Positions 877 to 24,656 of a DNA stretch of 35,977 nucleotides are shown here, piece after piece. Numbering within the stretch: position 1 is the first letter of the stretch; the number at the start of each line of letters is the position of its first letter. Position numbers and translations under genes: made by a program. Source of the DNA: Nanobdellota archaeon (lineage in GTDB: Archaea; Nanobdellota; Nanobdellia; Pacearchaeales; GW2011-AR1); contig JBBSYJ010000006.1 of assembly GCA_038045305.1 (NCBI GenBank), positions 1 through 35,977 of the forward strand. Direction: 5' to 3'. The notes under the pieces were generated by a model. The model did no database searches. It was not told the DNA's origin and saw nothing but the letters and a program-made list of their open reading frames with translations.

Positions 877-956
877 GTATTTTCAGAGAAATTAAGGATT
901 TTAAAGATATAGTATGCCAGAGAAAACTATAAAAGTCAAGCCCTAAGATTAATTAA

Positions 957-2006: not shown

Positions 2007-2010
2007 ATTA

Positions 2011-3519: not shown

Positions 3520-3549
3520 AAAAATTCATGTTTAGAAGGTTTTTAACTT

Positions 3550-5325: not shown

Positions 5326-5376
5326 CTTTTGTATTAATTTAATATGAATATTTTATAATTTTAATCAATAAAATAA

Positions 5377-5994: not shown

Positions 5995-6081
5995 AAAGAT
6001 TAATGATTATTCATCTATTATAAAGATTTTGCTACAAAAGTATAAGGTTACAAAAACCTCTCTAAATTTAACTAAAAATAA

Positions 6082-6744
6082 ATGGTAAAGGCGTTTATTT
6101 TCGACATGGATGGGGTATTAGTTAATTCTGAGAAGATAAAGGCTGATACTTGGAAAGTGGTATTAGTAAAATATGGGGTTTTAAATGGGGATGAGTGGTA
6201 TGAAAAGAAAATTGGTACCCCTGGAAAAGTCCTGGCACAAAAAGCCATAGAAGAATTTTCTTTGCCTATTGGATTCGAAGAACTTTTTCATGAAAAACAC
6301 GCAGCATATTTAGAAAGATTAAAACAAAGCTCAGTACCGATTGAATCAACAATAAACTTTTTAAAATCTATTCCAAAAGAGAAATTTAAAATTGCTATAA
6401 GTTCATCTATGAATAGGTCTGCAATTGAAAGTCAGATGACATTTCTAGGTTTATATGAACTTTTTGATGCTGTTACTTCAGGTTTAGATGAAGTTGAAAA
6501 AGACAAGCCCCATCCAGATATTTATCTTCTTTCAGCAAAAAAACTTAACACCCCTTTTGAAGAATGCATAGTTATAGAAGACAGTTCTTTAGGAGTAGAA
6601 TCAGCAAAAAGGGCTGGGATGAAATGTATAGGATTTATTAGTCCTTGCAGCGGAAATCAAGATTTATCAAAAGCTGATTTAGTTATTAATAATCTTAATA
6701 TTATCCATTTTGAAAGATTAATCAGTTTCTTAAACACTCTTTAA
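6082..6744 (+). CDS. HAD-superfamily hydrolase, beta-phosphoglucomutase/sugar-phosphatase-like
   Basis: FIFDMDGVLVNSE (DxDG), ISSSMNR, KPHPDIYL and VIEDSSLGVESAKRAGM motifs. Confidence 0.8.
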   Translation: MVKAFIFDMDGVLVNSEKIKADTWKVVLVKYGVLNGDEWYEKKIGTPGKVLAQKAIEEFSLPIGFEELFHEKHAAYLERLKQSSVPIESTINFLKSIPKEKFKIAISSSMNRSAIESQMTFLGLYELFDAVTSGLDEVEKDKPHPDIYLLSAKKLNTPFEECIVIEDSSLGVESAKRAGMKCIGFISPCSGNQDLSKADLVINNLNIIHFERLISFLNTL

Positions 6745-7618
6745 TCGCATCATAAACCTCATCAACTGAAACTGCAGATTGCGCTTCAGGAATATTTTGC
6801 CTTGAGAACATATACTTTCCAATTAAAGGACTGACAATCTTTTTCATTCGGCCGTAATCGTAAATTTCATTTGGAGGGGTGCAGTTGAAAATTGTTACAA
6901 GATTCTTTTTCAATCCAAGAGCAAGATGCATTCCTAAAGTATCACCGCAAACAATTAATTCGCAGCCGTTGATATCATCAATATGTTCTTTTATCGTCGG
7001 TTTCATTCCTAAAGAGATCACTTCATAACCATCACTCTGCAAACGCTTTTTAAGTTCAGGATACCCAGCCCAGTATTTGTTTGGCCATTTACTTTCTGTT
7101 ACATCAATTAATCCAATAGTTCCACGAACTTGTTCTTCCGAAAGCGGCTTAATTCCAAGATCATATTCCTGAGACGACCACTTATGCCCGAGCATTTCAG
7201 TCCAAATTTGAGGGACGGACTTCTGGTTTTGCATTTTAATTTTATCCGCCTCTTCTTTTGAGTAACGCCTACTTATGAAAGACATGTCAAGCCAGTAATC
7301 ACATTCTGAAGTGTAATCAACTTTATCGCTGCCGTCGAGAAAATGTCCAATGAGTTTTTTTGTTTTTATTCCTTTAAGGTATTCAAGCGGAGCGCGCTCT
7401 TCGTCCAAACTTAAAATCAAATCAAATTCATGTTGTTTTAATAATTCCTTATCATCTTCATTTTCAAAAATGTAGACCTTCTTTATTTTTTTAGAATTTA
7501 AAATATCTTTTGCAGCTTTGCTTGTTAACCAATGAATTTCACCATTTAATTCTGAAAGAAGAACAGTCGTTCTTACGACGTCTCCTAAGGCCCCTAGTTT
7601 TGAGATCAGAGTTTTCAT
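6722..7618 (-). CDS. Glycosyltransferase family 9-like (short heptosyltransferase-like protein)
   Basis: N-terminal KLGALGDVVRTTVLL and C-terminal CGDTLGMHLALGL, as in the GT9 GD..x and DxGxxHLA signatures. The 3' end overlaps the convergent HAD gene by 23 nt. Confidence 0.7.
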   Translation of the reverse strand: MKTLISKLGALGDVVRTTVLLSELNGEIHWLTSKAAKDILNSKKIKKVYIFENEDDKELLKQHEFDLILSLDEERAPLEYLKGIKTKKLIGHFLDGSDKVDYTSECDYWLDMSFISRRYSKEEADKIKMQNQKSVPQIWTEMLGHKWSSQEYDLGIKPLSEEQVRGTIGLIDVTESKWPNKYWAGYPELKKRLQSDGYEVISLGMKPTIKEHIDDINGCELIVCGDTLGMHLALGLKKNLVTIFNCTPPNEIYDYGRMKKIVSPLIGKYMFSRQNIPEAQSAVSVDEVYDAIKECLRN

Positions 7619-8328
7619 ATATTATCCCCCTCAAATTGTTCTGCTGAATCTTGTGGAATAAATCCTAATTGTTTTTCTAGAAAAGACAAATCTACTAGGC
7701 CGTTTTTATTTGCTGAACTGCAAGGAATGTTGACAAAGCCATTATAATTTAAACTTGCTTTTATTATTCCAGCTATATCTCTTTTACTGAGCCAATGAGA
7801 ATAATCAATAGGTTGGGAATTTGGGAAATTACATGGTTTGTCATTTTCATTTACAGAACCTAGGCGCAAATTCACAACAGAGATTTTATATTTTTTATGA
7901 TAATCTCTTCCTATTTCTTCAGATAAAAGTTTTAGTAAACCGTAATCATTTGCTGATGTCGTGGGAGTTTCTTCTGAAATCTTCTCCTTCGAATCAAAAA
8001 TTTCTTGCCAAGGATAAACATTTAAAGAACTTGCATAAATTATTCTTTTTACTTTATTCCGGACCGCAGCTTCGTAAACATTTCGTGTTCCTGTTAAATT
8101 TGGGTTAATTAAACTTATCCAATTAATATAATTTCTAACATCTGCAGCAAGATGTATTACTGTTTCAATATTTTTGAAATAGGGGAAGATTTCATGCAAA
8201 TCACATATATCTGCTTGTACAACCCCGTCACCTTTTTCTTGATCAAGTAGAACTAAATTGTGTTCTCTAAGATTTTCTTTTAAAATCCTCCCAATAGTCC
8301 CTTCAGATCCAGTAATTAAAGTTTTCAT
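7615..8328 (-). CDS. NAD-dependent epimerase/dehydratase family SDR (short form)
   Basis: TGSEGTIGRIL glycine-rich loop, ASS...YGLLK (S...YxxxK) catalytic pattern. ATGA overlaps with both neighbours indicate an operon. Confidence 0.75.
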   Translation of the reverse strand: MKTLITGSEGTIGRILKENLREHNLVLLDQEKGDGVVQADICDLHEIFPYFKNIETVIHLAADVRNYINWISLINPNLTGTRNVYEAAVRNKVKRIIYASSLNVYPWQEIFDSKEKISEETPTTSANDYGLLKLLSEEIGRDYHKKYKISVVNLRLGSVNENDKPCNFPNSQPIDYSHWLSKRDIAGIIKASLNYNGFVNIPCSSANKNGLVDLSFLEKQLGFIPQDSAEQFEGDNI

Positions 8329-9215
8329 TTTGTGCTTTTAGGTGTCTTCCATGCATCAGTGTGGAATTTTTTTGCAACCTTAACATGATATATTGAAAGT
8401 CCCCATATGTAAAGTTTTACAGGAAATAAAATGAAAGTCCAAATTATTTCTTTGAAATTCTTAGGATAGAGAAATGCCCTATAAGATTCAAATAATTCAT
8501 TTTTGAAGGTCTTTGTTTTTGGGTAGTCCTTTAAATTGATATATTTTGACATTTGCGCATGCGCTTTTGTTGTTCTTTTTTTCTGGTCAATAAAATCATG
8601 TAAATTTTTAGGGTAAGAAACGTAGACAATTGCATTCGGAGCGTATCCAATTTTGTAGCTCTTTTTCATAAAATAATAAGGAACTATTGCATCTTCAGGA
8701 ACATCTAAAGGAAAGTTCTTTACAACGTGATTTCTGAAAGCCCATAAATATCCAGAGCATTCTAAAAATTGCCCTTTCTTGAAACGCTTTAAACGCGCTT
8801 GGTGCGCCCCTGCATCACATAAAAGATGAGACCAATAACCTAACATTGTCTTACGCGAATCACTTGAAACAACACGCCCGGTTGCACATCCAATTTTAGG
8901 ATCTTTAAACAAATCAACTAAATATTTTATAGAATTTTCCTTGACAAAAATATCTCCATCGGAAAGAACCAAAATATCTCCTTTAACTTTGCTAAATAAT
9001 AAATTAAGAGCAAACATTTTCCCTTTTCCAGGATCTTGAAAAGTTTTTACTATTTTATTTTTCTTAGTGTAACTTTTTGCTACATCTAATGTCTCTTTAT
9101 CTGGAGCAGAGACAATTATTTCGTATTTTTCTTTTAGATCTTGATTTAGGAAGCCCTCAATTGCTTTCCCAATTGTTTTTGGCTCTTTGAAAGAGGTTAT
9201 TATAACTGAGATCAT
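8325..9215 (-). CDS. Glycosyltransferase family 2 (C-terminal TM helix)
   Basis: ISVIITSFKEP and VLSDGDIFV (DxD-like) motifs. Hydrophobic C-terminal IIWTFILFPVKLYIWGLSIY. Confidence 0.8.
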   Translation of the reverse strand: MISVIITSFKEPKTIGKAIEGFLNQDLKEKYEIIVSAPDKETLDVAKSYTKKNKIVKTFQDPGKGKMFALNLLFSKVKGDILVLSDGDIFVKENSIKYLVDLFKDPKIGCATGRVVSSDSRKTMLGYWSHLLCDAGAHQARLKRFKKGQFLECSGYLWAFRNHVVKNFPLDVPEDAIVPYYFMKKSYKIGYAPNAIVYVSYPKNLHDFIDQKKRTTKAHAQMSKYINLKDYPKTKTFKNELFESYRAFLYPKNFKEIIWTFILFPVKLYIWGLSIYHVKVAKKFHTDAWKTPKSTK

Positions 9216-10364
9216 TTACTTATGGCTTAATAGGGTTTTATAAAGATTTATGGTCCTCTTGGAAATTATATCCCAATTATATTTCTTCGATTTTTCAATA
9301 TTATTTTTGGAGATTTTACTTCGCAATTTAGCGTCGTCAAGAAGCTGAATTATTCTGGATTTGTATTTTTCATTTTCTCCGTAATCAACTAGAAATCCGT
9401 TTTCGGGCTCGGACATTTCATAAGGCACGCCGTTCACAGGAGAAGCAACAATTGGAAGACCGGAAGCCATGGCTTCGAATAAAGTTAAAGGAAGACCTTC
9501 CCTATATGAAGGAAGAACAAAAATGTCGGCGGACTGGTACATTTGTGCAACTTCTTTCCTATCACGCGTTTCACTCATTAAGATTATTTTCTTCTCTTTA
9601 CCTATTAATTTTTTCACGGTTTCGCGCATTCCTTCATCTGGACCACGAATTACAAAAATTACATCTTTCTTATCCTTTAATATCAATTTTGCTATTTCAA
9701 CAAATTTGTCAGGGCCTTTTGTAACGTTCAACCTACCAAAATAAAGGACTAATTTTCCATTAATTTTATTTTTCTTTTTGAAATTGTTTGGTTTTATCTT
9801 TTTAAAGAATATTTCTGCCATACCGTTAGGAATAACTTCTATCTTTTCTTCAGAGCCGCCGTACTTCTTTATGAAATCAATTTCCCAAGGGGTTATTGCA
9901 ATTATTTTATTTGTTAATTTTAATGCGAGTCGAGAAAAGATATTATAACTTACAAGAATTCCGAGACGACCTGCAAAAGAACGATGAGCATCAGACCAAG
10001 GGCAATGAGTTGTATGAACATGGGGGATTCTTTTTATTTTTGCGGCTAAAGCAGCCAGAACAAAATGAACATGGCCAAAAACATGTGAATGAATTATATC
10101 AAATTCATTTTCTAAAAGTTTTGTAAAGACAGATGGAAAGATAACTGCAAAATTTGCAACTTGAATGAGATATTTGCAACGATGCACATAAACGCCATCT
10201 ATAATTTCCTCAAGTACTGGAATGTGGCCTTTCTTGTCCCAGTCGGACGTGAAAACGTGAACTTCATGGCCTTCTTTAACTTGTCTTTCAGCTAATTCAC
10301 GAACAACTTGACCTACCCCTCCAATTGTCGGAAAATATTCTGACGAAACATGGGCGATTTTCAT
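9216..10364 (-). CDS. Glycosyltransferase family 4 (GT-B, group 1)
   Basis: MKIAHVSSEYFPTIGGVG start and the EX7E region REGLPLTLFEAMASGLPIV. Confidence 0.85.
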   Translation of the reverse strand: MKIAHVSSEYFPTIGGVGQVVRELAERQVKEGHEVHVFTSDWDKKGHIPVLEEIIDGVYVHRCKYLIQVANFAVIFPSVFTKLLENEFDIIHSHVFGHVHFVLAALAAKIKRIPHVHTTHCPWSDAHRSFAGRLGILVSYNIFSRLALKLTNKIIAITPWEIDFIKKYGGSEEKIEVIPNGMAEIFFKKIKPNNFKKKNKINGKLVLYFGRLNVTKGPDKFVEIAKLILKDKKDVIFVIRGPDEGMRETVKKLIGKEKKIILMSETRDRKEVAQMYQSADIFVLPSYREGLPLTLFEAMASGLPIVASPVNGVPYEMSEPENGFLVDYGENEKYKSRIIQLLDDAKLRSKISKNNIEKSKKYNWDIISKRTINLYKTLLSHK

Positions 10365-10395
10365 TTAATTAATGGAAAATGGAGGTTTATATAGA

Positions 10396-11409
10396 TTATT
10401 TTAGCAAAGATAAATAGGCCTTTACCATCTTTTTTTCGTCAAAATTCTTTAGTGCTGCCTTTCTTGAATTATTTCTAAAAAGCTTATTATTTAGAATTTT
10501 ATTTACAACTTCTAAATTAATTTCATTTGACACAATACCACAATTATTTTCTTCTACAAAGTCCGAGAGACCCATTAAGTCCTCGCATATAATTGCACAG
10601 CCGGACGACATTGCTTCAACTGCGCTTAAAGGCATATCAGGTCTGTCTGAGTAAAGTAAAGGCATAATTTTTCCTTGTGACGCAATTTTGGAAAGTTCTT
10701 TTTCAGACAAGGGTTTTGAAATTACTTTTACATTTTTAAGTTTTAATTTTAATATTTCTTCTGAAGATTTATCGCTACGACTGACAATTATTGCGTTAAG
10801 GCCTTTATTTTTTCTAAGAAAATCCAAAATCTTATCTATTCCTCTCAAATGAAAGTCGTTAGGATTGTAGGGGATGCTAAAAATTATAAAATCTATATTT
10901 TTCTTTTCTGCTGGTTTGAAAAGGCCTAAATCAACTCCAGGATAAATTAATCTTACTTCTTTTTTTGGGAAAGAACTTAAAGTAAATTCATACATTTTCT
11001 TACTCTGGCAGATTATTACATCACAATGTTTTAATGATGAATAATTCTTATCATAACCAGATATGATTGTAAAATATATTTTAAATTTCAACAACTTTAA
11101 GTAATTTAAGATAAGATTATGATAAATATTATTTACTGTCCAAAACATTAAGATTTTATCGTAGCCCTTAAGACGAAAGTAAATAAAATAAAAAGGCAGT
11201 AAGATTGACTGGACAATAAGACGAAAAAATCTTATAGGTATTATTCTTGGGATAATAGTCATTTCAGGATTAGAAGCAAGAGATTTAACATTTTGTATTG
11301 AAAGAACTTTAGAATCAAGAAAACTCTTTGATAATTTTCTTACTGTTTTTGAGGCCAACTCTGTAGGGGAATTATGCAAATCGGTGCCGAAAAATAATAC
11401 TTTATCCAT
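10396..11409 (-). CDS. GT-B glycosyltransferase (GT4-like)
   Basis: C-terminal MPLSAVEAMSSGCAIIC motif. The ORF extends to 11469, but that leaves only 12 nt to the divergent gene. The internal start MDKVLFFGTDL (ATG at 11409) matches typical GT4 N-termini, so the shorter model is preferred. Confidence 0.65.
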   Translation of the reverse strand: MDKVLFFGTDLHNSPTELASKTVRKLSKSFLDSKVLSIQNVKSLASNPEMTIIPRIIPIRFFRLIVQSILLPFYFIYFRLKGYDKILMFWTVNNIYHNLILNYLKLLKFKIYFTIISGYDKNYSSLKHCDVIICQSKKMYEFTLSSFPKKEVRLIYPGVDLGLFKPAEKKNIDFIIFSIPYNPNDFHLRGIDKILDFLRKNKGLNAIIVSRSDKSSEEILKLKLKNVKVISKPLSEKELSKIASQGKIMPLLYSDRPDMPLSAVEAMSSGCAIICEDLMGLSDFVEENNCGIVSNEINLEVVNKILNNKLFRNNSRKAALKNFDEKKMVKAYLSLLK

Positions 11410-11481
11410 TACTTTCCTAAAAATCTTAGTTATTAAAACCTTATGGGATAAGCTTAAAAAAGTTGCCAAGTAACTTATTTT

Positions 11482-12351
11482 ATGGAAAACTCTCTTGAAA
11501 GATTATTCATTAATTTTGATAAAAACAAAGTTGATTTTTGTATTTTAAGAAAATATCAGGAATTGCCAAGTAAGACAAACGGGGATGTCGACATTCTTAT
11601 TAATAAAGAAAATTTTACAGAGGCCTTAAAAATTGTAAATGGTGAAAGTTTTGTTTTTTATCCTTATACTGAACCGCATTATTTCTTCTTTAAACATGAT
11701 ATTAACCTTGGATTAGTTACACTTGATTTAACAAAAGGTGAAATGCTCTCAAAAGAGAAATTCAAAGATTTTTATGTTCCAAAAGATGGACAAGATATAA
11801 GGATAAAGAAAGGTTTTTTATCAAAATTAAAAACAAATTTAAGACGAAAGATACATTATTTTTTTAATGGAAAATTAATTTGCTTTATAGGGCCTGATGG
11901 AAGTGGAAAAAGCACTTATGCGCGAAAAGTTTTGCATGAAATAGAAAGTTACCCCTTGAAAAAAGAACTTATTTATTTTGGAACGCGACGAAGCGGCAAG
12001 ATTATTCGTATCTTTGATTTATTTTTCAAAGTTTGCAAAGTTTATTTAAACAAATTTTTAGGACGGCTAACTTTAACTGACAGGTATATTTATTTAACAT
12101 TCAGGAAAAGACCCTTCTTAAATAATTTAATTAGAATCTTGGTACCAAGACCAAACAAAATTTATCTGCTTGAAGCAAAACCAGAAACAATAAGAAAAAG
12201 AAAAAAGGAGTTAAGTATTGAAGAGATAAAAAGGTTATATGATCATTACTCCAAGATTAAGGGGGTTACTAAAGTAAATAATGAAGACAAATTAGACAAG
12301 AATATTAATGGAATAGTTAATGAAATACTATTGCTATATAATAAAGAATAA
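11482..12351 (+). CDS. Fusion-like protein: N-terminal nucleotidyltransferase-fold module plus C-terminal P-loop (thymidylate-kinase-like) module
   Basis: N-terminal CILRKYQELP...NGDVDILI resembles the GxDxDxL signature of pol-beta-type or uncharacterised nucleotidyltransferases. The Walker A motif is FIGPDGSGKST, followed by a DRY motif. Confidence 0.55.
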   Translation: MENSLERLFINFDKNKVDFCILRKYQELPSKTNGDVDILINKENFTEALKIVNGESFVFYPYTEPHYFFFKHDINLGLVTLDLTKGEMLSKEKFKDFYVPKDGQDIRIKKGFLSKLKTNLRRKIHYFFNGKLICFIGPDGSGKSTYARKVLHEIESYPLKKELIYFGTRRSGKIIRIFDLFFKVCKVYLNKFLGRLTLTDRYIYLTFRKRPFLNNLIRILVPRPNKIYLLEAKPETIRKRKKELSIEEIKRLYDHYSKIKGVTKVNNEDKLDKNINGIVNEILLLYNKE

Positions 12352-12469: not shown

Positions 12470-13120
12470 ATGAAAGATATAAACGCAACAATAATCATAA
12501 ATCTTAAAGGTAAAAGTGAAGACGAACTTTACAAAGCAGTTGAATACTCTAGAAGAAAGAATATCCAAAAGGCAATAAGGAGCGGAATAACTTATGAGCA
12601 AAAACACAATACAGAAATTCTAAAAGAATGTTATAAAATAAATTCTAAAGTTCTAATTGAAGGTGGAACGCACCCAAAAAAATATGAGGATTGGATAAGA
12701 TTTATTGAGCCAGACAAAAATCCGTTTTTTGTTGTTAAATTTAAAGAGAAGATTATAGGATGTTTTGCTATAAAAGAAATCACACGAAGATTTTATGGGG
12801 AAAATTCTGATGAAAAAGGAATAAGGCCAACGATTTTTGCAAATGAAAAAGAATACAACGACTTTCGTCCGAACGATTTAATGTATTGGGCTACGATTCT
12901 TTATGGATTAAAAAATAATTACAATTTTGTTGATCTTGGGGGATGGCAGATAAACCCTCGCGGACATCTTGTTGGAGTGAACAGCTTCAAAGAAAAATGG
13001 GGTGGAGAAATCTTTTATTATTATTCCGATTATCCTGTTTTAAGGGCCTTGGGAAGAAAGTTAATAAGAAAGTCAGGTTTTTTATGGAAGTTGAACGCTA
13101 AAATTAAGAAGAAAAGTTAG
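12470..13120 (+). CDS. FemAB-like / GNAT-fold acyltransferase (single-domain, half-size)
   Basis: RRKNIQKAIRSGITYE, DLMYWATILYGLKNNYNFVDLGG and SFKEKWGG match the C-terminal half of FemAB-family enzymes. Only 216 aa, with an in-frame stop 63 nt upstream of the ATG. Confidence 0.6.
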   Translation: MKDINATIIINLKGKSEDELYKAVEYSRRKNIQKAIRSGITYEQKHNTEILKECYKINSKVLIEGGTHPKKYEDWIRFIEPDKNPFFVVKFKEKIIGCFAIKEITRRFYGENSDEKGIRPTIFANEKEYNDFRPNDLMYWATILYGLKNNYNFVDLGGWQINPRGHLVGVNSFKEKWGGEIFYYYSDYPVLRALGRKLIRKSGFLWKLNAKIKKKS

Positions 13121-14145
13121 TTAATATCTTTTATATGTGCACGGATATTAGCAATTACTTCTTGCGCGCTTATTTCTTGCATACATTTTGAGACGTCTGA
13201 CTGTGTGTAGTCATTAAAAATACAACCGGACGCGTCTCCTTCTCTTCCAGATTTATAAAAAGGAATAGAAAATCTTTTTTGCGCATCTTCAAGACACGAA
13301 TAACCTACTGCGCCGCATGGCTCTGCTAAAGGACATTTATATTTTCTTCTAGAAAGAACTCTATTGCTAGAATATGCTATGACACTAGGATGTGTGCTTC
13401 CTAAAATAAGTAAGACCTTTCCTTTTGAGGGATTAACTCCTTTAATTTCATAATCTGGAGTTCCTTGCAAGACCGCGTTCGCTAAATGAGTTGGGCCCGT
13501 ATCAACACCAACAATCTGGTCTGAAGCATATAATATTGCAGCGGTCTCTCTTAAAGGAAGATTATCAGAAAGGTAAACTGCATTTGGAATATTTTTTATG
13601 TTTGCTGTTGGAAGAAAAAGTGGAATTGCAAAGGCGGAAATTTCTGAGACAAGATCTTCAATTGTTTTCTTGAGCAAATTTCTATTTTTTGTTGTAGCAA
13701 ACAAAGGTAATGCAACTATTGGTTTATCAGTTGAAATTGATTTTAGAAGATTTCTTGCTTTAATGACTTCATTCTTTGTCAATAAAACTTTAACATCTTC
13801 TTTTGATGAATGAACAGACAATCCATAATAATAATTCAAAGCATAACCCATCCACTCACTTAAATGGGCTATTTCTGGTTTTTCTTTTCCAGAAAATTCG
13901 GACGGCATAGGATTAGAATTTGGATTGAAATCCCAATAGCGGGAAATATCTAGAAATTCATTTTCTTTTAAATTAATTAAATTATTATCTAACAACTCCA
14001 AATTCATTCCTTCAAATAATGGAAAGATAAATGGTTTTGCTAAAATAGATGGCTCAAATCCCAGATCTCTTAATGGTTTGATTAATGAAGAGATACAAAC
14101 CGTGTCACCAATTGCATTATTTGATTTTAAAATTACCCTTTTCAC
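13117..14145 (-). CDS. Glycosyltransferase family 9-like with a Cys-rich C-terminal extension
   Basis: NNAIGDTVCISSLIKPL and VGVDTGPTHLANAV are GT9 signatures. The track ORF reaches ATG 14187, but its first 14 codons read through a TATA-like AT tract (ATATAAATATTTATATAATAATAA). The GTG at 14145 is preferred. The C-terminal ~70 aa carry 5 Cys. Confidence 0.7.
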   Translation of the reverse strand: MKRVILKSNNAIGDTVCISSLIKPLRDLGFEPSILAKPFIFPLFEGMNLELLDNNLINLKENEFLDISRYWDFNPNSNPMPSEFSGKEKPEIAHLSEWMGYALNYYYGLSVHSSKEDVKVLLTKNEVIKARNLLKSISTDKPIVALPLFATTKNRNLLKKTIEDLVSEISAFAIPLFLPTANIKNIPNAVYLSDNLPLRETAAILYASDQIVGVDTGPTHLANAVLQGTPDYEIKGVNPSKGKVLLILGSTHPSVIAYSSNRVLSRRKYKCPLAEPCGAVGYSCLEDAQKRFSIPFYKSGREGDASGCIFNDYTQSDVSKCMQEISAQEVIANIRAHIKDIN

Positions 14146-14219
14146 AAAGTTCAGAAAAATTATTATTATATAAATATTTATATGCAAAAAGTTAAAAATG
14201 GGAGACGTTAATTAAGTAA

Positions 14220-15182
14220 ATGAAGCCGAAGAAGATATTAGTAATAAAGAACGATCATATAGGAGATATGATTCTTACAACTGGGGTCTTCAGAGAGTTG
14301 AAGAAAGAATATCCAAAGGCAAAGATAACTGTTGTGGCCTCTAATGCAAATAAGTCAATGTTAGAAAGTAATCCTTATATTAATGAAGTAATTGTTGTGG
14401 ATCATGGTAAAAAATTCTTGAAAAATTGGAAGAATTACTCTCAACTTAAGAAGAGAATAAGAGATGAAAAGTACGACGTTGCAATTGACTTAAGGGGGGA
14501 CTTTTTAAATATATTTTTCTTAATGTACTTGACTGGAATAAAAAAAAGATTGGGATTCTATAAAAGCAATTGGTCAAAAATGCTTCTGAATTTCGGCAAA
14601 AAAAGGGATATAGAAAAACATGAAATAAAAAATATGTTTGAAGTTGTAAATGAAGGACTTGGAATAAAAAGGAAAAATATAAAGCCGGAAATCTTCGTGA
14701 GTGAGAAAGATAAAAAAGAATTAGTAGAATATATAGCAAAGAATAAACTTGATAAATTTGTATGCGTATGCCCTGATGCAAGCCATCCACTTCGGCTTTT
14801 GCCTTTGGAAGAATTTGACAAAATTATAAAATATATCAAAGAAAATTATCCACAATACAAAATATTAGTGATTGGAGTAAGCGACAGAGTTGACAAACTT
14901 GTGCAAGACAATCCAGGGACGATCTCATTAAAATTTGCAAACCTTAAAATGCTTTATTTATTATTCCAAAAAAGTGCCGTTGTATTTAGTTTAGATACTG
15001 GGACTACGCCATTGTCATGGGCAGGAAATTCTAATTTGATAAATATATTGTTAAAATTTAGCGTTCCTTACAGAGAACATTTAAAACCATTAGGTAAAAA
15101 TGCTATCGTCGTTTGGGAAAAGGACGAGCCTTTGAAAGCAGAAGACATAATTAAAGAACTGCCAAGATTCTTGCAAAAGTAA
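14220..15182 (+). CDS. Glycosyltransferase family 9-like
   Basis: KILVIKNDHIGDMILTTGVFRELKKEYP is a typical GT9 N-terminus. The C-terminal VFSLDTGTTPLSWAG is a variant of DxGxxHLA. It is divergent from the previous GT9. Confidence 0.7.
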   Translation: MKPKKILVIKNDHIGDMILTTGVFRELKKEYPKAKITVVASNANKSMLESNPYINEVIVVDHGKKFLKNWKNYSQLKKRIRDEKYDVAIDLRGDFLNIFFLMYLTGIKKRLGFYKSNWSKMLLNFGKKRDIEKHEIKNMFEVVNEGLGIKRKNIKPEIFVSEKDKKELVEYIAKNKLDKFVCVCPDASHPLRLLPLEEFDKIIKYIKENYPQYKILVIGVSDRVDKLVQDNPGTISLKFANLKMLYLLFQKSAVVFSLDTGTTPLSWAGNSNLINILLKFSVPYREHLKPLGKNAIVVWEKDEPLKAEDIIKELPRFLQK

Positions 15183-15225: not shown

Positions 15226-15618
15226 ATGGAAATGCCTTTATCAGAATTGATTGATAAGTTAAGCATTGTAAAACTTAAAATAGAAAGAGTAGGAGAACCG
15301 CAATTGCAAAAAGAGTATGAAGCATATTTAGAAGCAATTGAAGAGTTTGAAAAGAAAGGTGTAAATGTCAGAAAGGAATGGTTGGAAGAATTGTATAACA
15401 TAAACAAACAGTGTTGGGATTTAGAGTGGGAAGCACGAAAGATAACAGCTTCGGCAAATATATGGGAAGAAGCAGAGAAATTTGGTCTTGCAGAACTTGG
15501 AAGAAGGGCATTAATAATTGGGGATTTAATGAAAAGAAGATCTGATGTTAAAAGTGATATTGCACGCGAAAGTAAAATTGGTTTCGAAGATAAAAAGATA
15601 AATCACGTTGGAAATTAG
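15226..15618 (+). CDS. Small helical protein of unknown function, paralog A
   Basis: 130 aa. Clear paralog of 19807..20175: shared [11 protein letters not shown] / MEIPLSELIDR, NxxxWDL and ES.xGFxDxKxN blocks. The charged heptad-like composition suggests a helical bundle. Confidence 0.7.
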
Positions 15619-17981
15619 ATCTCTTTTGTTTTTATCTCTCCGTGCTCAAAATAAACTACTTCAGGATAAGGTAATGGAAAAATAAATCTCCCTCCTTGAA
15701 TTAAAAATTCCTTTTCACGTTCAATAAATCCGGACTTAAAATGCCATGGCAAAACAAGATAATAGTGTGGATGAGCTTTTCTTGAGTCATCTTCGGAGAT
15801 TATAGGTATGTCGGTTCCAGGGGTTTTTTTACCCCATTTAAATTCATTTCGTTCTGCTGCTGCCTCGCAAATGTTTTTATCAATTCCCAAATATTGGATT
15901 AAAACATTTCCTTTAGTTGAAGCACCGTATAAATGAATTTTCTTATGATTAAGTTTTTCCGTTATCAAGAAATCTTTTAATTTTATCTTTATAACTTCTA
16001 CACGCTTTACAAATTCTGAGTATGGTTTTCTTGTATGAAGCTCGAGATTCCTTTCATATTCTCTTACTTTTTGCACGTCAGAGTTAATATTTCTATTATT
16101 TGAGTCATGACAAATATAAAGACGAAAACTTCCGCCGTTAACGTCGTTAAAAGAAATATCAAAGACCTTTAATCCAACTTTAGAAAGCATCCATTCAATT
16201 TGCTTTAAAGAATAATATTCCAAATGTTCTTGACAAATTGTATCAAAAGAATTTATCTCAAGCATTCGTGGCATGTAACTTTGCTCGCAAATCCAAATTC
16301 CATCCTGGTGCAAAACATCCTTAACTTGTTTAACAAACTCCATCGGCTCGTCAAGATCATAGAACATTGCTATTGAGGTAATAATCTTTGCTTTCTTGTT
16401 TGGGTGAATTGATTTAAATTTATCAGAACTGAAAAAATCAACAATTAATTTTATATTTTCAGGATAGTAATTCTCATATTTCTTGCTTGTAGGGTCTATT
16501 CCAATCTTTTCAAGATTTGGATTTTTATAGGCCTTAAGCAAAACACCGTCGCTGCTTCCAATATCAAGGGCTACGTCGCCTTCATTTATCTCAACAAGTT
16601 TTTCAGTAGTGTTTGCCATTTCAGTCAAATGATTCACCATTGAATTATTAAGACCAGAACGATAACCATAGGTATCTCCATACATTTCTTTTAAGTCAGC
16701 TGTATGTTTTAACTGCACTAAACCACAAGCGGAAGAATCCTCAGAATCATCACACTTTATTAATTCTAAAGGAACTTTCATCGGCTCTTCTTCAATTACA
16801 GATGGAAATCTGCCAGACAAATACTGGTTTCCTAAATTCATAAGAGAAATTAAATTTCTGTTTCCACATATGCGACATTTATCTATAGTTCTTATTTTGA
16901 ACGACTCTTCATTAAACCCTTTTTGTTTTAAATATAACTCTCTTTCAGCCAACATCAAATCATGCTCGGCCATTATTCTTACTAACTCTTTGAACCTAAC
17001 TTTTGCTTCCCAACCCAATTCATGTTTTATCTTTGAAGGATCGGCCAGTAAAATATCAACTTCTGCTGGGCGAAAATAAAGAGGATTTATGTCGATGACA
17101 ACATTTCCTTTTTCATCAAGATATTTTTCATTTATACCAGACATTCCATTTGACTTTATATTCAATCCAAGAACTCGGGCTGTCTCTTCCAAAAATTCCC
17201 TTACAGTATGTTTCTCTCCAGTTCCTACGACATAATCAGACGGACTTTCTTGCTGAAGCATTAACCACATTGCTTCAACATACTCTTTTGCATAACCCCA
17301 ATCTCTTTCAGCATCTAGATTTCCTAAAGATAATTTCTTCTGCAGACCTAATTTAATCCTTGCAAGAGAAATAGTTATTTTTCTAGTCACGAAGGACTCG
17401 CCTCGCCTTTCTGATTCATGGTTAAATAAAATTCCATTGCAAGCAAAAATTCCATATGCCTCCCGCGCGCCAATTGTTTCCCAGTAAGAAAAGACCTTTG
17501 CACGCGCGTATGGACTTCTAGGATAAAAAGGGGTTTTTTCACTTTGAGGAATCTCAACAACTTTACCAAACATTTCTGAAGAACTTGCTTGATAGAATTT
17601 TGCTTTGGGACAGAATTTTCTCATTGCTTCTAAAATTCTCAAAGTTCCTAAAGCAACAATGTTTGAAGTACTTTCGGGAATATCAAAACTAATTCTTACA
17701 TGGCTTTGTGCTCCAAGATTGTAAATTTCATCCGGCTGGACGGTGCGTATAATTTCTTCAATTGATGAAGAATCAGTCAAATCGCCGTAATGCAAATAGA
17801 AATTTTTTTTAGGAGTGTCTGAAGTGTAAGTTCCTTCTTCTTGAATATGAACTATTCTTTCTCTATTAAAAGTACTTGTCCTTCTTATAACGCCGTGAAC
17901 TTCATAGCCCTTAGACAACAAAAAGTCCGCAAGGTAAGAACCATCCTGTCCAGTAATCCCGGTAATTATTGCCCTTTTCAT
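15615..17981 (-). CDS. gmd: Fusion of GDP-mannose 4,6-dehydratase (N-terminal) to an NDP-hexose C-methyltransferase (C-terminal)
   Basis: aa 1-~350 carry [41 protein letters not shown] and [21 protein letters not shown], the GMD hallmarks. From aa ~369 come [25 protein letters not shown] (Zn-ribbon), [10 protein letters not shown] (SAM site) and the C-terminal domain of TylCIII-type C-methyltransferases. It is a single 788-aa ORF. Confidence 0.85.
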
Positions 17982-18066: not shown

Positions 18067-18720
18067 TTAAATTCTCATTTCTAAGGCCTTCATTGCCAAA
18101 TCTGAACCATCAAGTAAATAAGGATCTTTAGCAGCATGTTCTGCCCTAAACGATTCCCAATATTCTTTTGGTGTAATTATGCTTGGATTTTTATGTTCAT
18201 GATTAAGAGCTATTTCAGAACCTTCATTGGCTTCCGCATAAAATACATCTGACGTAGAATAACATCCCCTATTGTTATAACCCTTTCCTCCAGAATTTCT
18301 AACATCAGTGGGACTTATTGAATATATAGCTGCACTTGCATGCATTAAATAAAGAATGTTTTCTTGATTTAAATCCAAACCACTCTCTCCTTTTGTTTTT
18401 TTTATTAAAGATTTAAGGGGATGAAGACCTGCATCCATTCCTCCTCCAATTGGCCATAAAAGGCCCTTACATGGTTCTTCTAATCTTACTACATACAATA
18501 GACCAGGCATCCCTTTTTCATCATTTAATTTTATATAAACATCATGACAGGCCCTAATACATTTTTGCTGAAGTTCTCCAAATACTTGGTCATCAAGAAA
18601 TGTAAATCCTTTTGGCCTTAATACAGATATATCTACTTCACTTCCACTAGGATCCTGAGAATATACTCTAAGAGGAGGCAACCCTAATTTTCTTTGAATT
18701 TCTTGAAATGTATTTACCAT
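18067..18720 (-). CDS. Hypothetical protein, Nudix-fold-like with a degenerate Nudix box
   Basis: LLYVVRLEEPCKGLLWPIGGGMDAGLHPLKSLIKKTKGESGL aligns by eye to the Nudix pattern (LL.v.R...kG.W..PGG...GE....a.REl.EE.Gl). Most catalytic Glu positions are replaced. It looks slightly GC-richer than its neighbours. Confidence 0.4.
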   Translation of the reverse strand: MVNTFQEIQRKLGLPPLRVYSQDPSGSEVDISVLRPKGFTFLDDQVFGELQQKCIRACHDVYIKLNDEKGMPGLLYVVRLEEPCKGLLWPIGGGMDAGLHPLKSLIKKTKGESGLDLNQENILYLMHASAAIYSISPTDVRNSGGKGYNNRGCYSTSDVFYAEANEGSEIALNHEHKNPSIITPKEYWESFRAEHAAKDPYLLDGSDLAMKALEMRI

Positions 18721-18760: not shown

Positions 18761-19735
18761 TCACTTATTAATATCAAATTCAACCATTTCTTTAATAATT
18801 TCAGGGAAAGAATAATGCGGTCTCCAACCAATTGATTTTAATTTAGAATTATTTCCTTTTATTACTCTGTCGTCCGGGCGGAAGAATTCAGGATTTACTT
18901 CTACAAGAAGTTTTCCGTTTTTGTCATAACCTTTTTCATTTACCCCTTCTCCTTTCCAATAGATATTCATTCCCACATATTTAAAGGCCAGATCTACAAA
19001 GTCCCTTACTGTATGATCCTCACCAAGAGAAATTACATAATCAGAAGAACTTGGTTGCTGCATTATTTGATATATAGCGTTTGCGGTGTCTTTCGCATGA
19101 ATCCAGTCTCTTTGTGAGTTTAAATTACCTAAAGATAATTTCTCCAACTTTCCTTTCTTTATCTTTACAACACTATCAGTTATCTTTTTAGTTACAAATG
19201 CATCCCCTCTCTTTGACGACTCTGAATTAAAGATTATGCCATTACAAGAAAAAAGACCTTGCATTTCTCTAGAATATTTTATAAATTGAAACGCAGCCAA
19301 TTTTGCAATAGCATAAGGATTTTTTGGATCAAAGGCCGTATTTTCATCGACAACTCCAGACATGTTTCCGTAAAACTCAGCAGAGCCGGCTTGGAATATT
19401 TTTATCTTTGGATTTAACCTTCTGACAACTTCGCATATTTTTATTACTGGAAGCAAATTTACTTTCATAGTATATTCTGGTTCATTGATTGAAACCCGTG
19501 CATTTGATAAAGCAGCTAAATTATAAATTTCGTCGGGAGAAGAAATAGCAATTGCTTTTTCCAAAGAGTTTAAATCCTCTAAGTCGCCAAACAAAGGCTC
19601 AACTTTATCAACTAATCTCTCTTCTTTGCCTTTTCTTACAAACCCAAAAACATTATAGCCATTTTCAATAAGTATTTCAGATAGATAACTTCCTATTTGT
19701 CCGCTTGCTCCTGTTACTAATGCTGTTTTAGGCAT
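18761..19735 (-). CDS. GDP-mannose 4,6-dehydratase-family SDR paralog (dehydratase or 4-keto reductase)
   Basis: VTGASGQIGSYLSEILIENGYNVFGFVR, GSAEFYG, YAIAK, GIIFNSESSKRGDAFVTKKIT. It follows the GMD lineage, but NHES is changed to NSES. 324 aa. Confidence 0.75.
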   Translation of the reverse strand: MPKTALVTGASGQIGSYLSEILIENGYNVFGFVRKGKEERLVDKVEPLFGDLEDLNSLEKAIAISSPDEIYNLAALSNARVSINEPEYTMKVNLLPVIKICEVVRRLNPKIKIFQAGSAEFYGNMSGVVDENTAFDPKNPYAIAKLAAFQFIKYSREMQGLFSCNGIIFNSESSKRGDAFVTKKITDSVVKIKKGKLEKLSLGNLNSQRDWIHAKDTANAIYQIMQQPSSSDYVISLGEDHTVRDFVDLAFKYVGMNIYWKGEGVNEKGYDKNGKLLVEVNPEFFRPDDRVIKGNNSKLKSIGWRPHYSFPEIIKEMVEFDINK

Positions 19736-19806: not shown

Positions 19807-20175
19807 ATGGAAATACCTTTGTCAGAATTAATAGATAGAATGACTGTTTTAAGAATAAAAGTCCAGAACACTGAAAATCCTAATGTTAAAAAAGAGCTAG
19901 ATCTTGTAGAAGAGGCATTAAGAAATTTTGAAATGAAAAAAGGAAAAATAGACAAGAATCTCATAAATAACTTACAAATAATCAATCAAGAGCTTTGGGA
20001 TTTGGTGGCTGAATTAAGCGATGCCAAAAAAGAAAATAAAAGTTTAGAAGAAATTGGACGAATTTACATAAGGCAGCATATAGCAAACAAAAAAAGAATT
20101 CAAATAAAAAATAAAATTGCGGAAGAAAGCGGCTCAGGATTTAAAGATATTAAAGTCAATTCTAACTTCAATTAA
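19807..20175 (+). CDS. Small helical protein of unknown function, paralog B
   Basis: 122 aa paralog of 15226..15618. The first ~30 nt of the two genes are also about 85% identical at the DNA level. Confidence 0.7.
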   Translation: MEIPLSELIDRMTVLRIKVQNTENPNVKKELDLVEEALRNFEMKKGKIDKNLINNLQIINQELWDLVAELSDAKKENKSLEEIGRIYIRQHIANKKRIQIKNKIAEESGSGFKDIKVNSNFN

Positions 20176-20176
20176 A

Positions 20177-20884
20177 ATGAGCAAGGAAGATTTTAATCCT
20201 ACACTTAAGAGTTCTCTTAAGAAAAAAGGGTCTATAAAATTCGCTTTAGATGGGATAAAGTTGGTATTTGAATATATTTATTACATTCTCTTTAAATGGA
20301 GGAAATTTCATTTAAACGACGCAACTTACAATTATTTTTATTATCCTTATAATGCCACATGGAGAAATGAAAGAGAAGTTGAAGTTCCAATAGTTTGGAA
20401 TGAAGTAAAAAAATGTGAACCAGAAAAGGTCTTGGAAATTGGGAATGTTTTGTCGCATTATTTCAATGTAAAGCATGACATTCTTGATAAATATGAAAAA
20501 CTTCCCAGAATAATCAATGAAGATGCTACAAATTTCAAGACAGATAAAAGATATGACTTGATTGTAGCAATATCTACATTTGAACATGTTGGATGGGATG
20601 AAAGTCCAAAAGAACCAACAAAAATAATAAAGACTATTGAAAACCTAAAGAAACTTCTATCTAAGAATGGGAAAATTATTTTTACAATTCCAGCAGATTA
20701 TAATCCAGAACTTGATAAACTCATAAAAAAAGGGAAAATAAGATTAAATGAGGTTTATTTTATGAAACGTATTTCAAAAGATAATAAATGGATCCAGATA
20801 GAAGAAAAAGACATAGAAGGAATAAAATTTGAAAGCCCTTTTCCTAGAGCGAATGGATTAATTATTGGTTTTATTAATAAATGA
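20177..20884 (+). CDS. Class I SAM-dependent methyltransferase-like protein
   Basis: The track ORF starts at 20117 and overlaps the previous gene. The ATG at 20177, 1 nt after the upstream stop, gives MSKEDF... NEREVEVP, VLEIGNVLS and DLIVAISTFEHVG resemble methyltransferase motifs I and post-II. Confidence 0.6.
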   Translation: MSKEDFNPTLKSSLKKKGSIKFALDGIKLVFEYIYYILFKWRKFHLNDATYNYFYYPYNATWRNEREVEVPIVWNEVKKCEPEKVLEIGNVLSHYFNVKHDILDKYEKLPRIINEDATNFKTDKRYDLIVAISTFEHVGWDESPKEPTKIIKTIENLKKLLSKNGKIIFTIPADYNPELDKLIKKGKIRLNEVYFMKRISKDNKWIQIEEKDIEGIKFESPFPRANGLIIGFINK

Positions 20885-22453: not shown

Positions 22454-23188
22454 TTAATCTTTTTTGGAATGATTTTGAGCCACAATAAAGATACTTACTC
22501 CAAAAGGAAAATTCAAATATTTTAGTAAGATATTCTCAAAGAATAAAAGTTTCGTCAATAAAAAGTTTATTATTTTCGGTGTTTTAGCTAAATTGGCTTT
22601 TTTTGAATTTGGTTTTATTAGTTTTTGTGTAAAACGAACCAAAGTTATGGGCACAAAGAGAAAGAAATTCCAATAAGATAATTTTAAGATCTTCCAATCA
22701 TAGAATAGTCTTGAAAAGGATTTTTTATCATATCTTTGATAATGATGATTTATCTCATCGTGACTGCTCCATAGGAAATTAAATGCCGGGCAGAAACAAA
22801 TTAATAATCCGCCATCTTTAAGCAAGGACTTCCAGTTTTTTGCTGCGGCATTTCTATCTTTTATATGTTCAAGCACGTCAGACGCTATAAGAATGTCAAA
22901 TTTCTTTTTAAGTTTTATTTTTTGCGCATCCATAAAAGAGCATGGGATGTTCTTTTCTTTACATATCTCTATTGCGTCTTTACTTATATCAATACCAAAA
23001 ACGTTAGAGTAATCTTCTTTATTTAATTCCTCAATTAAATCACCGCCTGAACACCCAATATCAAGAATTTCTGAGGTCTTGGGTATTTTGTAAATATCAA
23101 AAATTTTTAAGATCATATCACGCCTTGCAACAAACCACCAATGATCTTTTTCAAGGGAGTGATACTTCGCCTCAAATGATTTATCCAT
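22454..23188 (-). CDS. Class I SAM-dependent methyltransferase with a C-terminal hydrophobic tail
   Basis: ILDIGCSGGDLIEEL (motif I) and FDILIASDVLEHI (motif II/III). The C-terminus has WNFFLFVPITLV and FGVSIFIV segments. Confidence 0.8.
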   Translation of the reverse strand: MDKSFEAKYHSLEKDHWWFVARRDMILKIFDIYKIPKTSEILDIGCSGGDLIEELNKEDYSNVFGIDISKDAIEICKEKNIPCSFMDAQKIKLKKKFDILIASDVLEHIKDRNAAAKNWKSLLKDGGLLICFCPAFNFLWSSHDEINHHYQRYDKKSFSRLFYDWKILKLSYWNFFLFVPITLVRFTQKLIKPNSKKANLAKTPKIINFLLTKLLFFENILLKYLNFPFGVSIFIVAQNHSKKD

Positions 23189-24656
23189 TTATCTTTCTCC
23201 AAACATAAAGCCCCTCATATTTTTTATATAATTCAAAATTGGAATATCTAAAATCATCACCAAATGTTATGGCATAATTCACATTATTTAAATTTTCATG
23301 CAAATTATTCCCGTCAATCCCTCCGGCAAACCATATTAAACGCCTTTCATTTATATTTGGAATTGGTTCAAATTTCTTAGATAATATCTTAGAATTGTTT
23401 TCTAAAAATAATTGATAGTCCTGTATGCTTATGAATTCATTAATTCCACTACCCCAATAAATATGTGCTAATTTCCGGTAATCATCATCCAAGTTGCCGA
23501 CAATAAAGGACTCATTCTTAAAATCAACTGCAATTTTGTCCAAATCAGAGGATATAATAGATTCTCGGCTAATTGACGATAAATTTGGATTTTCTGGATT
23601 TTGTAATATGTAAGTTATGTCTCTCCCATCCAAAGTGTTTGGATGGTAATAAAATTGTACTACATATGGAAAGATGAAGATTAAAGATATTACTAATGAA
23701 AATATAATCTGTTTCTTCATTCTTTTTTGATCAATATATTTTATACCAGTTAACAAAAGTATAGGAAAAATAGAAAACACATACCTTACTTGAGGATTTA
23801 TAAAAATTAATAAAAGACATAAAGTGAGAAATATAATTGTTTTTTTATTTTGCTTCAGATTTTCAATAGAGTAATTCTTCCAATAGTATAAAGGTATGGA
23901 AACCAAAATTAACAATAACAATATTATTTTATTAAATAATCCTCCAGCGTAGGAGGTACCTCTACCAAATAAAAAGGCGTTCGCCAAAGTACCAAGGAAA
24001 CTCTTCATAATACTGAAAAGTGCAAAATTAAAAAGATATTGATCAAGTAAAAGTCTCGGCATAATCCCTACAAATATAGCTAAAGACAACAGGGTAAAGT
24101 GGCTGAATTTCTTATTATACATAAATACAAAGGCCATGAACAACCCAAAAAAGATAATTGTGTCCCAAAAGATATAAGATAACCCTAAAGAAATTCCGGC
24201 AAAGGATAAACAATACATATCATTGTTTGTATCATATTTTTTTATAAAAAACCAAGCCCATAAAAGGAAAAAGGAGGAGATGATTATAGGAGTAATCCAA
24301 GGGGATATATACCAAACAGCTGGTGCAACAAGAGATAATAAGATAATTCTTTTGTCTTTGCCGCTTATAAAATACATTGATAAGAGGATTAAGAATATAA
24401 AAATTAAGTTTACAATTTTGAATGCAAAATAATTATTTAGTAAGCCAACTAAAGGGGACATAATAAATCCATAAAAATAAGAGTGCGAGCTTCTTATTCC
24501 TGCGTTATAATCCCCTGAAAAGTATTTTGCGACATCAGAATAATCCCCTATGTCTGTGTATCCATAAAATGAGGTTAAAATTGTTACAATTACCAATAAA
24601 ATTGAAAGTAAAATGATCGCATTCTTGTAAGTTAAGTTAAATTTCCACTCTTTCAT
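23181..24656 (-). CDS. Polytopic membrane protein; candidate GT-C-like glycosyltransferase or Wzy-like polymerase
   Basis: 491 aa with about 11 TM helices. An acidic first loop (YTDIGDYSD) is followed by a ~150-aa soluble C-terminal domain. No diagnostic motif was recognised. Confidence 0.35.
   Translation of the reverse strand: MKEWKFNLTYKNAIILLSILLVIVTILTSFYGYTDIGDYSDVAKYFSGDYNAGIRSSHSYFYGFIMSPLVGLLNNYFAFKIVNLIFIFLILLSMYFISGKDKRIILLSLVAPAVWYISPWITPIIISSFFLLWAWFFIKKYDTNNDMYCLSFAGISLGLSYIFWDTIIFFGLFMAFVFMYNKKFSHFTLLSLAIFVGIMPRLLLDQYLFNFALFSIMKSFLGTLANAFLFGRGTSYAGGLFNKIILLLLILVSIPLYYWKNYSIENLKQNKKTIIFLTLCLLLIFINPQVRYVFSIFPILLLTGIKYIDQKRMKKQIIFSLVISLIFIFPYVVQFYYHPNTLDGRDITYILQNPENPNLSSISRESIISSDLDKIAVDFKNESFIVGNLDDDYRKLAHIYWGSGINEFISIQDYQLFLENNSKILSKKFEPIPNINERRLIWFAGGIDGNNLHENLNNVNYAITFGDDFRYSNFELYKKYEGLYVWRKING

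Follow-up and report, generated by a model that had tools for sequence, protein, structure and literature searches.

Two paralogous small helical proteins of a DPANN archaeon: a conserved pair of the DUF6165/DUF4254 superfamily in a glycan gene neighbourhood

Introduction

DPM2 and DPM3 are small helical subunits, non-catalytic and separately encoded, which stabilise the GT2 enzyme DPM1. In asymmetric enzyme/pseudoenzyme dimers, paralogous subunits lose complementary residues of the site, so that a single composite site survives. DUF4254 and DUF6165 are two of the conserved, widespread protein families that lack an assigned function. The sole function-related mention found in the literature on these two families is an entry in a table: in a survey of Flavobacteria, DUF4254 is listed as linked to RfaF, an enzyme of the LPS core, beside which it is reported in 50/50 of the genomes tabulated (PMC9425974). 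Literature searches by Pfam and InterPro accession return only Plasmodium gene identifiers. Genomic association with glycosyltransferase genes is the only functional lead for the DUF6165/DUF4254 superfamily.

The window, that is, the whole stretch of 35,977 nucleotides analysed here, comes from a DPANN (Nanoarchaeota) archaeon and encodes two related small proteins, copy A and copy B. They would be like DPM2 and DPM3 only in the helper role proposed for them; DPM2 and DPM3 are membrane proteins, whereas copies A and B have no hydrophobic segment, and there is no kinship in sequence or fold. To the enzyme/pseudoenzyme dimers they appear similar in the complementary loss of residues and in the existence of tandem-fused versions, a pattern that for A and B is read from alignments only.

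The two genes and their surroundings

Both open reading frames described in an earlier note on this DNA are present (Table 1) and are paralogous as it had claimed, with 43/126 identities in BLASTP (~34-35%, E 7e-21). In comparison with a sister genome of the same genus, dN/dS is 0.099 for copy A and 0.068 for copy B (dS 0.46 and 0.70, respectively), indicating purifying selection. This and the size of the family rule out spurious open reading frames, and copies A and B are genuine genes under selection. They are the only family members in the window's genome (727 kb, 85% complete). The best database match to copy A, at 92% identity, comes from a Nanoarchaeota MAG and is annotated as a hypothetical protein. 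The two copies differ in charge, the pI being 5.3 (acidic) for copy A and 8.8 (basic) for copy B. Export or a membrane location of the two proteins is ruled out by the absence of a hydrophobic segment from either.

Table 1. Positions of copies A and B, of genes in the window and of features at other loci
Locus	Feature	Position	Strand	Remarks
Window	B12-binding radical-SAM enzyme	3550..5325	-	
Window	GT9 (LPS-heptosyltransferase-family) gene	6722..7618		
Window	GT2	8325..9215	-	46-64% identical orthologue of the GT2 divergent from the single-copy member in other DPANN
Window	GT4	9216..10364	-	50-54% identical orthologue of the GT4 beside the single-copy member
Window	Open reading frame of the glycan island	11482..12351	+	289 aa; no Pfam match at E≤1e-3
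Window	Second, divergent GT9-like gene	13117..14187	-	weak Pfam match, 21.9 bits (cut-off 22)
Window	GT9-family glycosyltransferase	14220..15182	+	PF01075, E 1.2e-15; 43 bp upstream of copy A
Window	Copy A	15226..15618	+	130 aa; A-type member of the DUF6165/DUF4254-related family
Window	GMD::TylCIII-type C-methyltransferase fusion	15615..17981	-	788 aa; GDP-mannose 4,6-dehydratase; convergent with copy A
Window	217-aa protein	18067..18720	-	no Pfam match
Window	Second GMD-family short-chain dehydrogenase	18761..19735	-	divergent from copy B, 71 bp apart
Window	Copy B	19807..20175	+	122 aa; B-type member of the DUF6165/DUF4254-related family
Window	Methyltransferase-like protein	20177..20884	+	235 aa from ATG 20177; starts 1 nt past the stop of copy B
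Window	Open reading frame of the glycan island	23181..24656	-	491 aa; no Pfam match at E≤1e-3
L037	A-type gene	2153..2545		
L037	B-type gene	2546..2911		starts 1 nt after the end of A
L038	B-type gene	1937..2293		followed by the A-type gene; coupled
L004	B12-binding radical-SAM enzymes	5230..6621, 13042..14409		
L008	B12-binding radical-SAM enzyme	5968..7503		
L014	B12-binding radical-SAM enzyme	2025..3854		
L040	B12-binding radical-SAM enzyme	3..1127		
L006	Carbamoyltransferase (Carbam_trans_N/C)	8680..11799		split by a LAGLIDADG-domain intein
L007	Carbamoyltransferase (Carbam_trans_N/C)	4246..7365		split by a LAGLIDADG-domain intein
L017	Conserved protein after the family member	444..1310		263-288 aa in the three loci
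L022	Conserved protein after the family member	4403..5254		
L023	Conserved protein after the family member	4371..5162		

The neighbours that the earlier note had given to the two copies, a GT9 gene, the GMD fusion, the GMD paralogue and a methyltransferase, are all confirmed (Table 1). Orthologues of the GT9 gene upstream of copy A lie beside A-type genes at four other loci (L004, L037, L038 and L039). The stops of copy A and the GMD::C-methyltransferase fusion overlap by 4 nt (15615..15618), which leaves no space for an intervening terminator. At the other end of the GMD block, the region between copy B and the divergent dehydrogenase gene is AT-rich and contains TATA-like sequences. The methyltransferase-like gene downstream of copy B has an orthologue with 52% identity that adjoins the A/B pair in L037. 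The 217-aa protein within the block is 30% identical to a weak-NUDIX protein encoded after the GMD::C-methyltransferase in L004, and 30% identity is also found with the protein encoded next to the A-type copy in L041. It is thus a recurrent component of the GDP-deoxyhexose module and may resemble a GDP-sugar hydrolase.

Several further genes belong to the same surroundings. In the window the GT2 and GT4 genes abut, and their orthologues flank an antisense single-copy member of the family in four or more other DPANN genomes, the GT4 lying directly downstream of that member in L016, L024, L026 and L027. Either the single-copy member has been lost from the gap, or it has been replaced by the A/B pair ~5 kb away. 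The window has three genes of the GT9 (LPS-heptosyltransferase) family, and the finding of GT9 in 18/41 related DPANN genomes makes this family common in the lineage, though the lineage is without LPS. Two open reading frames of the glycan island have no Pfam match. B12-binding radical-SAM enzymes recur at many loci a few genes from the family member, sometimes adjoining it, a recurrence that hints at additional C-methylation of the glycan or at other radical reactions on it.

Membership in the DUF6165/DUF4254 superfamily

A word-indexed search yields 21 homologues of the two proteins, and the profile made from them, run against 1.84 billion cluster representatives, detects at least 1,593 of them at E≤1e-3, of which 388 reach E≤1e-10, free-standing copies being the commonest form. 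Homologues and a conserved neighbourhood exist beyond this genome, and the concern of the earlier note that the two proteins might have neither falls away.

Neither copy reaches the gathering cut-off of 27 bits for DUF6165 (PF19662) or DUF4254 (PF14063). The DUF6165 model gives copy A a score of 13.6 bits (E 0.057); for copy B the score is 14.6 bits (E 0.028), with residues 2-111 of the protein aligned to model positions 4-108. With the DUF4254 model, copy A reaches 13.6 bits in an alignment confined to residues 7-30 (24 residues), and no match is found for copy B or in a six-frame search of the window's genome. Searches of NCBIfam and PHROGs give only chance-level matches. Close relatives do reach the two models. 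P0017 and P0018, 50-52% identical to copy A, match PF14063, and P0020 (39%) matches PF19662; altogether, 9/21 close relatives match DUF6165 and 9/21 match DUF4254. Among the wider members, 23/137 match DUF6165 (best 2.1e-8) and 21/137 match DUF4254 (best 3.3e-7) at E≤1e-3, while about two-thirds of the DPANN/CPR clade is outside the reach of the DUF6165 model. Since the window proteins are below threshold and their relatives reach both models, they are assigned to a sister group of DUF6165 and DUF4254 that links the two families and that their models mostly miss.

Copies A and B thus belong to the DUF6165/DUF4254 superfamily by transitive homology and by context: intermediates connect them to both families, and association with glycosyltransferase genes is found for them as well. 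The resemblance to DUF4254-type proteins that the earlier note had suggested holds at the level of the superfamily, through these relatives, but not for the window proteins themselves, which stay below the cut-off. As in DUF6165, the proteins of the family are all-helical and of ~120-135 aa, and copies A and B match along most of the DUF6165 model, although a differentiated A/B pair is not described for DUF6165. The match to DUF4254 covers the helix-1 motif with the invariant Asp, and the tabulated link of DUF4254 to RfaF, a GT9 heptosyltransferase, in Flavobacteria (PMC9425974) parallels the GT9 gene beside copy A.

Conserved residues and predicted fold

The three blocks that the earlier note had seen to be shared are all present in both copies: an N-terminal block, which is MEIPLSELIDR in copy B; a central N60-x3-W64-D-L, found in both; and a C-terminal block, which is ESGSGFKDIKVN in copy B. 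They contain the most conserved positions of the family, as judged from 137 single-domain representatives with ≤~50% identity. In this set D10 is invariant (100%), I14, L17, K18, N60, W64, G92, R105, K109, N110 and K124 are conserved at ≥90%, and E30, E67, R71, R94, R99, N102 and H127 at 75-90%.

The AlphaFold2 model of copy A, made with 21 sequences, is a four-helix bundle (pLDDT 91.5, pTM 0.82) with helices at 5-21, 25-43, 50-74, 79-86 and 88-116, followed by the conserved C-terminal tail in a non-helical form. A Foldseek search of the PDB with the monomer and tandem models gives no match at E≤0.001 (best E 1.1, TM <0.45), and a sequence search of the PDB with the family profiles A1 and A2 gives chance matches only, E 0.29 or worse. 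The null result of Foldseek leaves MazG-like, HEPN, chorismate-mutase-like and similar known bundles unsupported. No relative with a solved structure emerges, and the sole fold matches come from predicted viral structures: in BFVD, Foldseek finds six giant-virus multidomain proteins with a probability of 1.00 and a TM of 0.65-0.68, including a "Glycosyltransferase" of Pithovirus LCPAC304 and a GNAT-family acetyltransferase of Mimivirus.

Two known helical folds can be rejected by their motifs as well. MazG-like NTP pyrophosphatases have a four-helix fold with paired metal-binding motifs, E-x-x-E and E-x-x-D. The acidic residues D10, E30, E67 and E90 of the present family are not spaced in this way, no MazG, dUTPase or HisE structure is among the Foldseek matches in the PDB, and there is no Pfam match. 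HEPN proteins are recognised by their fold and by an R-x(4-6)-H motif. This motif is absent, R105-x3-K109-N110 and K124-x2-H127 being found instead, and HEPN is matched neither in Pfam nor by Foldseek in the PDB.

Genomic context and fusions across the family

The neighbours of family members were compared at 21 loci from species-representative genomes, by clustering them and scanning the cluster representatives; all of these loci belong to DPANN (Woesearchaeota, Pacearchaeota, Nanoarchaeota) or to CPR/unclassified bacteria. In 11/21 loci the gene upstream of the family member, and divergent from it, belongs to one GT2 family of ~290 aa; one GT4 family occurs 15 times, in eight cases directly downstream of the family member. 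A single-copy member in DPANN usually lies between GT2 and GT4. Other recurrent neighbours are genes for PMT_2, methyltransferase, B12-radical-SAM, PfkB kinase and sulfotransferase. At five loci (L001-3, L022 and L023) the member lies beside a DRG-type GTPase gene with no glycan genes nearby, and such housekeeping contexts account for about one-fifth of the single-copy members. A conserved protein of 263-288 aa is encoded after the family member in L017, L022 and L023, in such contexts beside a DRG-like GTPase; it has no Pfam match and carries a class-I methyltransferase-like 'VIDLGAG' motif. In the DPANN glycan loci L006 and L007, the gene three positions downstream of the helical family member encodes a carbamoyltransferase split by an intein (Table 1).

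Among the best 150 of the at least 1,593 representatives, the family domain is fused to NTP_transferase, GT2 (n=2), GT4 and HAD phosphatase domains, and also to FkbM methyltransferase, class-I methyltransferase, an 8xMP membrane protein and N6_N4 methylase. These partners have unrelated folds, and no single protein-protein interface would explain all of them.

The family is rare and scattered: with the window's own genome counted in each case, it is found in 3/41 related genomes and in 4/301 of a phylum-wide sample. GT9 is found in 18/41 related genomes, 15 of which have GT9 without the family. GT9 is thus rejected as an obligate partner, and there is no general requirement for the family among these enzymes. 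Co-occurrence with GT9 or GMD genes, which the earlier note proposed to examine, is borne out in part: GT9 and GMD occur at all five A/B contigs described below, but most GT9-containing genomes lack the family, and GT9 as a general partner gives way to GT2 and GT4, the usual neighbours in DPANN. The breadth of the partners, which comprise GT2, GT4, GT9, nucleotide-sugar enzymes and giant-virus proteins, points to general glycan assembly, not to a role specific to GT9. From its encoding beside, or in fusion with, such glycosyltransferases and nucleotide-sugar enzymes, we infer that the family works in glycan assembly.

Two subfamilies that occur together

Copies A and B fall into separate clades, one of 16 A-type representatives sharing a 9-residue insert after R71 and the other of ~10 B-type representatives, as seen in quick IQ-TREE and FastTree trees with modest support; that of the B clade is weak (FastTree 0.43). 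The nearest relative of copy B is P0068 (68% identical). A recent local duplication is rejected by the tree and by the separate orthologues of each copy. Contigs of ≥8 kb that carry an A-type gene (the window, the sister genome, L004, L037 and L038) also carry a B-type gene in 5/5 cases, and all five have GT9, GMD and a TylCIII-type C-methyltransferase, either fused or split. On three A-type contigs of 1.4-2 kb no B-type gene is visible, these contigs being too small to show one. The 2-kb contig L039 repeats the order of the window, namely GT9, A and a convergent GMD::C-methyltransferase.

The two genes are adjacent in three of the five contigs. In L037 they follow each other almost without a gap (Table 1). 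In L038 the order is reversed, and the A-type gene likely starts at the Met aligned with the N-terminus of the family, ~2 nt past the stop of B. In L004 the two are convergent and 70 bp apart. In the window, in contrast, copies A and B are in separate transcription units 4.2 kb apart. Since A and B are adjacent elsewhere, the likeliest reading of the window is that such a pair has been split, with one gene left at each end of the GMD block; the abutment on this block, to which the earlier note drew attention, is real in the window but is not a conserved feature, A and B lying together in L037, L038 and L004. Two old subfamilies, represented here by copy A and copy B, each contribute one member to a conserved A/B pair.

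Complementary residue loss and tandem forms

In single-copy members R21, E67, R71, R94, A95, R99, N102 and H127 are conserved at 70-100%. The A clade keeps R21 (81%), R71 (100%), R94 (75%) and H127 (88%), with Met at N102 in 88% and with Gly as the commonest residue at R99 (44%). The B clade keeps N102 (100%), with R21 replaced by Asn (70%), R94 by Ile (90%) and A95 by Tyr (100%); in this clade E67 and R71 are not conserved and the chain stops before H127. Both clades retain D10, K18, N60, W64, G92, R105, K109, N110, G119-F120 and K124. The window proteins follow their clades. Copy A has the 9-residue insert after R71 and retains R21, E67, R71, R94 and H127, with R99→G, N102→M and N110→S. Copy B retains N102 and N110, with R21→N, E67→V, R71→S, R94→I, A95→Y, R99→H and H127→S, the last at a position before which the chain of most B-clade members stops. 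The complementary losses suggest a two-subunit complex, in which N102 of one subunit probably acts with R21, R94 and the C-terminal tail of the other.

Some CPR bacteria encode two copies of the domain in one chain. Single-domain sequences aligned to a tandem protein all fell on its C-half, and the comparison of the halves is made in alignment A4, which consists of nine true tandem homologues. In the N-half the equivalent of N102 is invariant, and R21, W64, R94 and the tail are lost; in the C-half R21, W64, E67, R71, R99 and the tail are invariant, and the position of N102 varies. In this alignment the CPR tandem fusions independently mirror the A/B asymmetry. AlphaFold2 predicts the tandem protein of L032 to be one compact body (pLDDT 91.3, pTM 0.86) with short strands at 2-4 and 127-132, which are the two N-terminal "ME-x-P/S-L" segments. 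In the model these two strands probably pair with each other, and such pairing would account for the strong conservation of the N-terminus. Tandem fusions, one of which is confidently folded as a single body, are evidence for a dimeric unit.

A possible composite site and its alternatives

At a probability of about 0.5, we propose that A and B form a heterodimer with one intact composite site at the interface, acting as a helper of glycan assembly. The working unit would be a dimer of four-helix bundles. In the homodimer of a single-copy member, the conserved polar residues D10, K18, R21, N60, W64, E67, R71, R94, R99, N102, R105, K109 and N110 would form two equivalent sites between the subunits, with the C-terminal GF..K..H tail as a further part of each. 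At the A/B loci the homodimer would have turned into a heterodimer with a single intact site, to which A would give R21, E67, R71, R94 and the H127 tail, and B would give N102. An Arg/Lys-rich site with an Asn, a Trp and an invariant Asp, found with glycosyltransferases of three folds, a nucleotidyltransferase, a phosphatase and methyltransferases, would point to an anionic sugar as the ligand, which may be a nucleotide-sugar, its NDP product or an acceptor that is phosphorylated or lipid-linked. Through this site, the pair would help or regulate the GT9 encoded at the same locus, along with the tailoring enzymes of the GDP-6-deoxy-C-methylhexose. We infer that A and B associate, what ligand the pair would bind and how it would affect glycosyltransferases, and the composite site is deduced from sequence patterns. 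More tentatively, the family may be a new class of dimeric glycosyltransferase cofactors or a new small enzyme, in either case with a fold that the PDB lacks and with a range from the Bacteroidota LPS core to DPANN, CPR and giant viruses; the A/B pairs and the CPR tandems would then be its obligate asymmetric form, in which a single ligand site gates the GT9 that transfers the C-methylated 6-deoxyhexose.

The strongest rival, although an unlikely one, is that the family is itself a small new enzyme for a step in nucleotide-sugar or glycan tailoring. It would suit the invariance of D10 and the near-invariance of K18, N60, W64, R105, K109, N110 and K124 over the 137 representatives, and the one-good-site asymmetry is typical of enzyme/pseudoenzyme dimers; the domain is also fused to enzymes of consecutive pathway steps (nucleotidyltransferase, HAD phosphatase, glycosyltransferases, methyltransferases), as pathway enzymes commonly are. 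However, no catalytic motif or cofactor site is recognised, the PDB holds neither a fold relative nor a sequence match, and no one pathway surrounds the family throughout (GT2/GT4 loci, GT9 with GDP-deoxyhexose, Bacteroidota LPS core), so that no single missing reaction is apparent.

It is quite unlikely that the two copies are independent helpers, each a non-interacting homodimer, A serving the GT9 and B the downstream methyltransferase. The arrangement in the window would favour this, where A follows the GT9 by 43 bp and translational coupling links B to the methyltransferase-like gene in another transcription unit 4.2 kb away, as would the fusion of the family to both glycosyltransferases and methyltransferases elsewhere and the presence of an orthologue of this methyltransferase gene near the pair in L037. 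Against it, A and B lie directly together at other loci, being adjacent or coupled in two (L037, L038) and convergent in a third (L004). Moreover, the residue losses are complementary and not parallel, the same asymmetry appears in single-chain tandem forms, and B alone lacks five of the positions at which single-copy members show 70-95% conservation.

It is improbable that the family is a passive module for oligomerisation or scaffolding, in the form of a helical bundle without a ligand site. The all-helical bundle, the dimer evidence from the tandem forms (pTM 0.86) and the fusion to enzymes of unrelated folds would all be compatible with it, but a scaffold rarely keeps an invariant Asp and near-invariant Lys, Asn, Trp and Arg over such divergence, and the commonest form of the family is a free-standing copy without a docking partner domain. 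A transcriptional regulator of the adjacent glycan genes is very improbable: its divergent arrangement over short AT-rich intergenic regions (~50 bp to GT2 elsewhere, 71 bp here), a small helical protein that is basic in copy B and a chance-level profile match on sigma-70 (E 0.33) are outweighed by the lack of a match to helix-turn-helix or other DNA-binding families, by covalent fusions to glycosyltransferases, a nucleotidyltransferase and a phosphatase, by the occurrence of the domain inside giant-virus multidomain proteins, one of them named a glycosyltransferase, and by the acidity of copy A.

Implications

New here for a superfamily without an assigned function are the DPANN/CPR clade, its partnership with GT2 and GT4 and the giant-virus domains, and also the conserved A/B pair with complementary residue loss, which is mirrored by the tandem fusions. 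Were the family to act as a cofactor for glycosyltransferases in general, or as a new enzyme, this would be relevant to the biosynthesis of LPS and surface glycans and to the reconstitution of these pathways in vitro.
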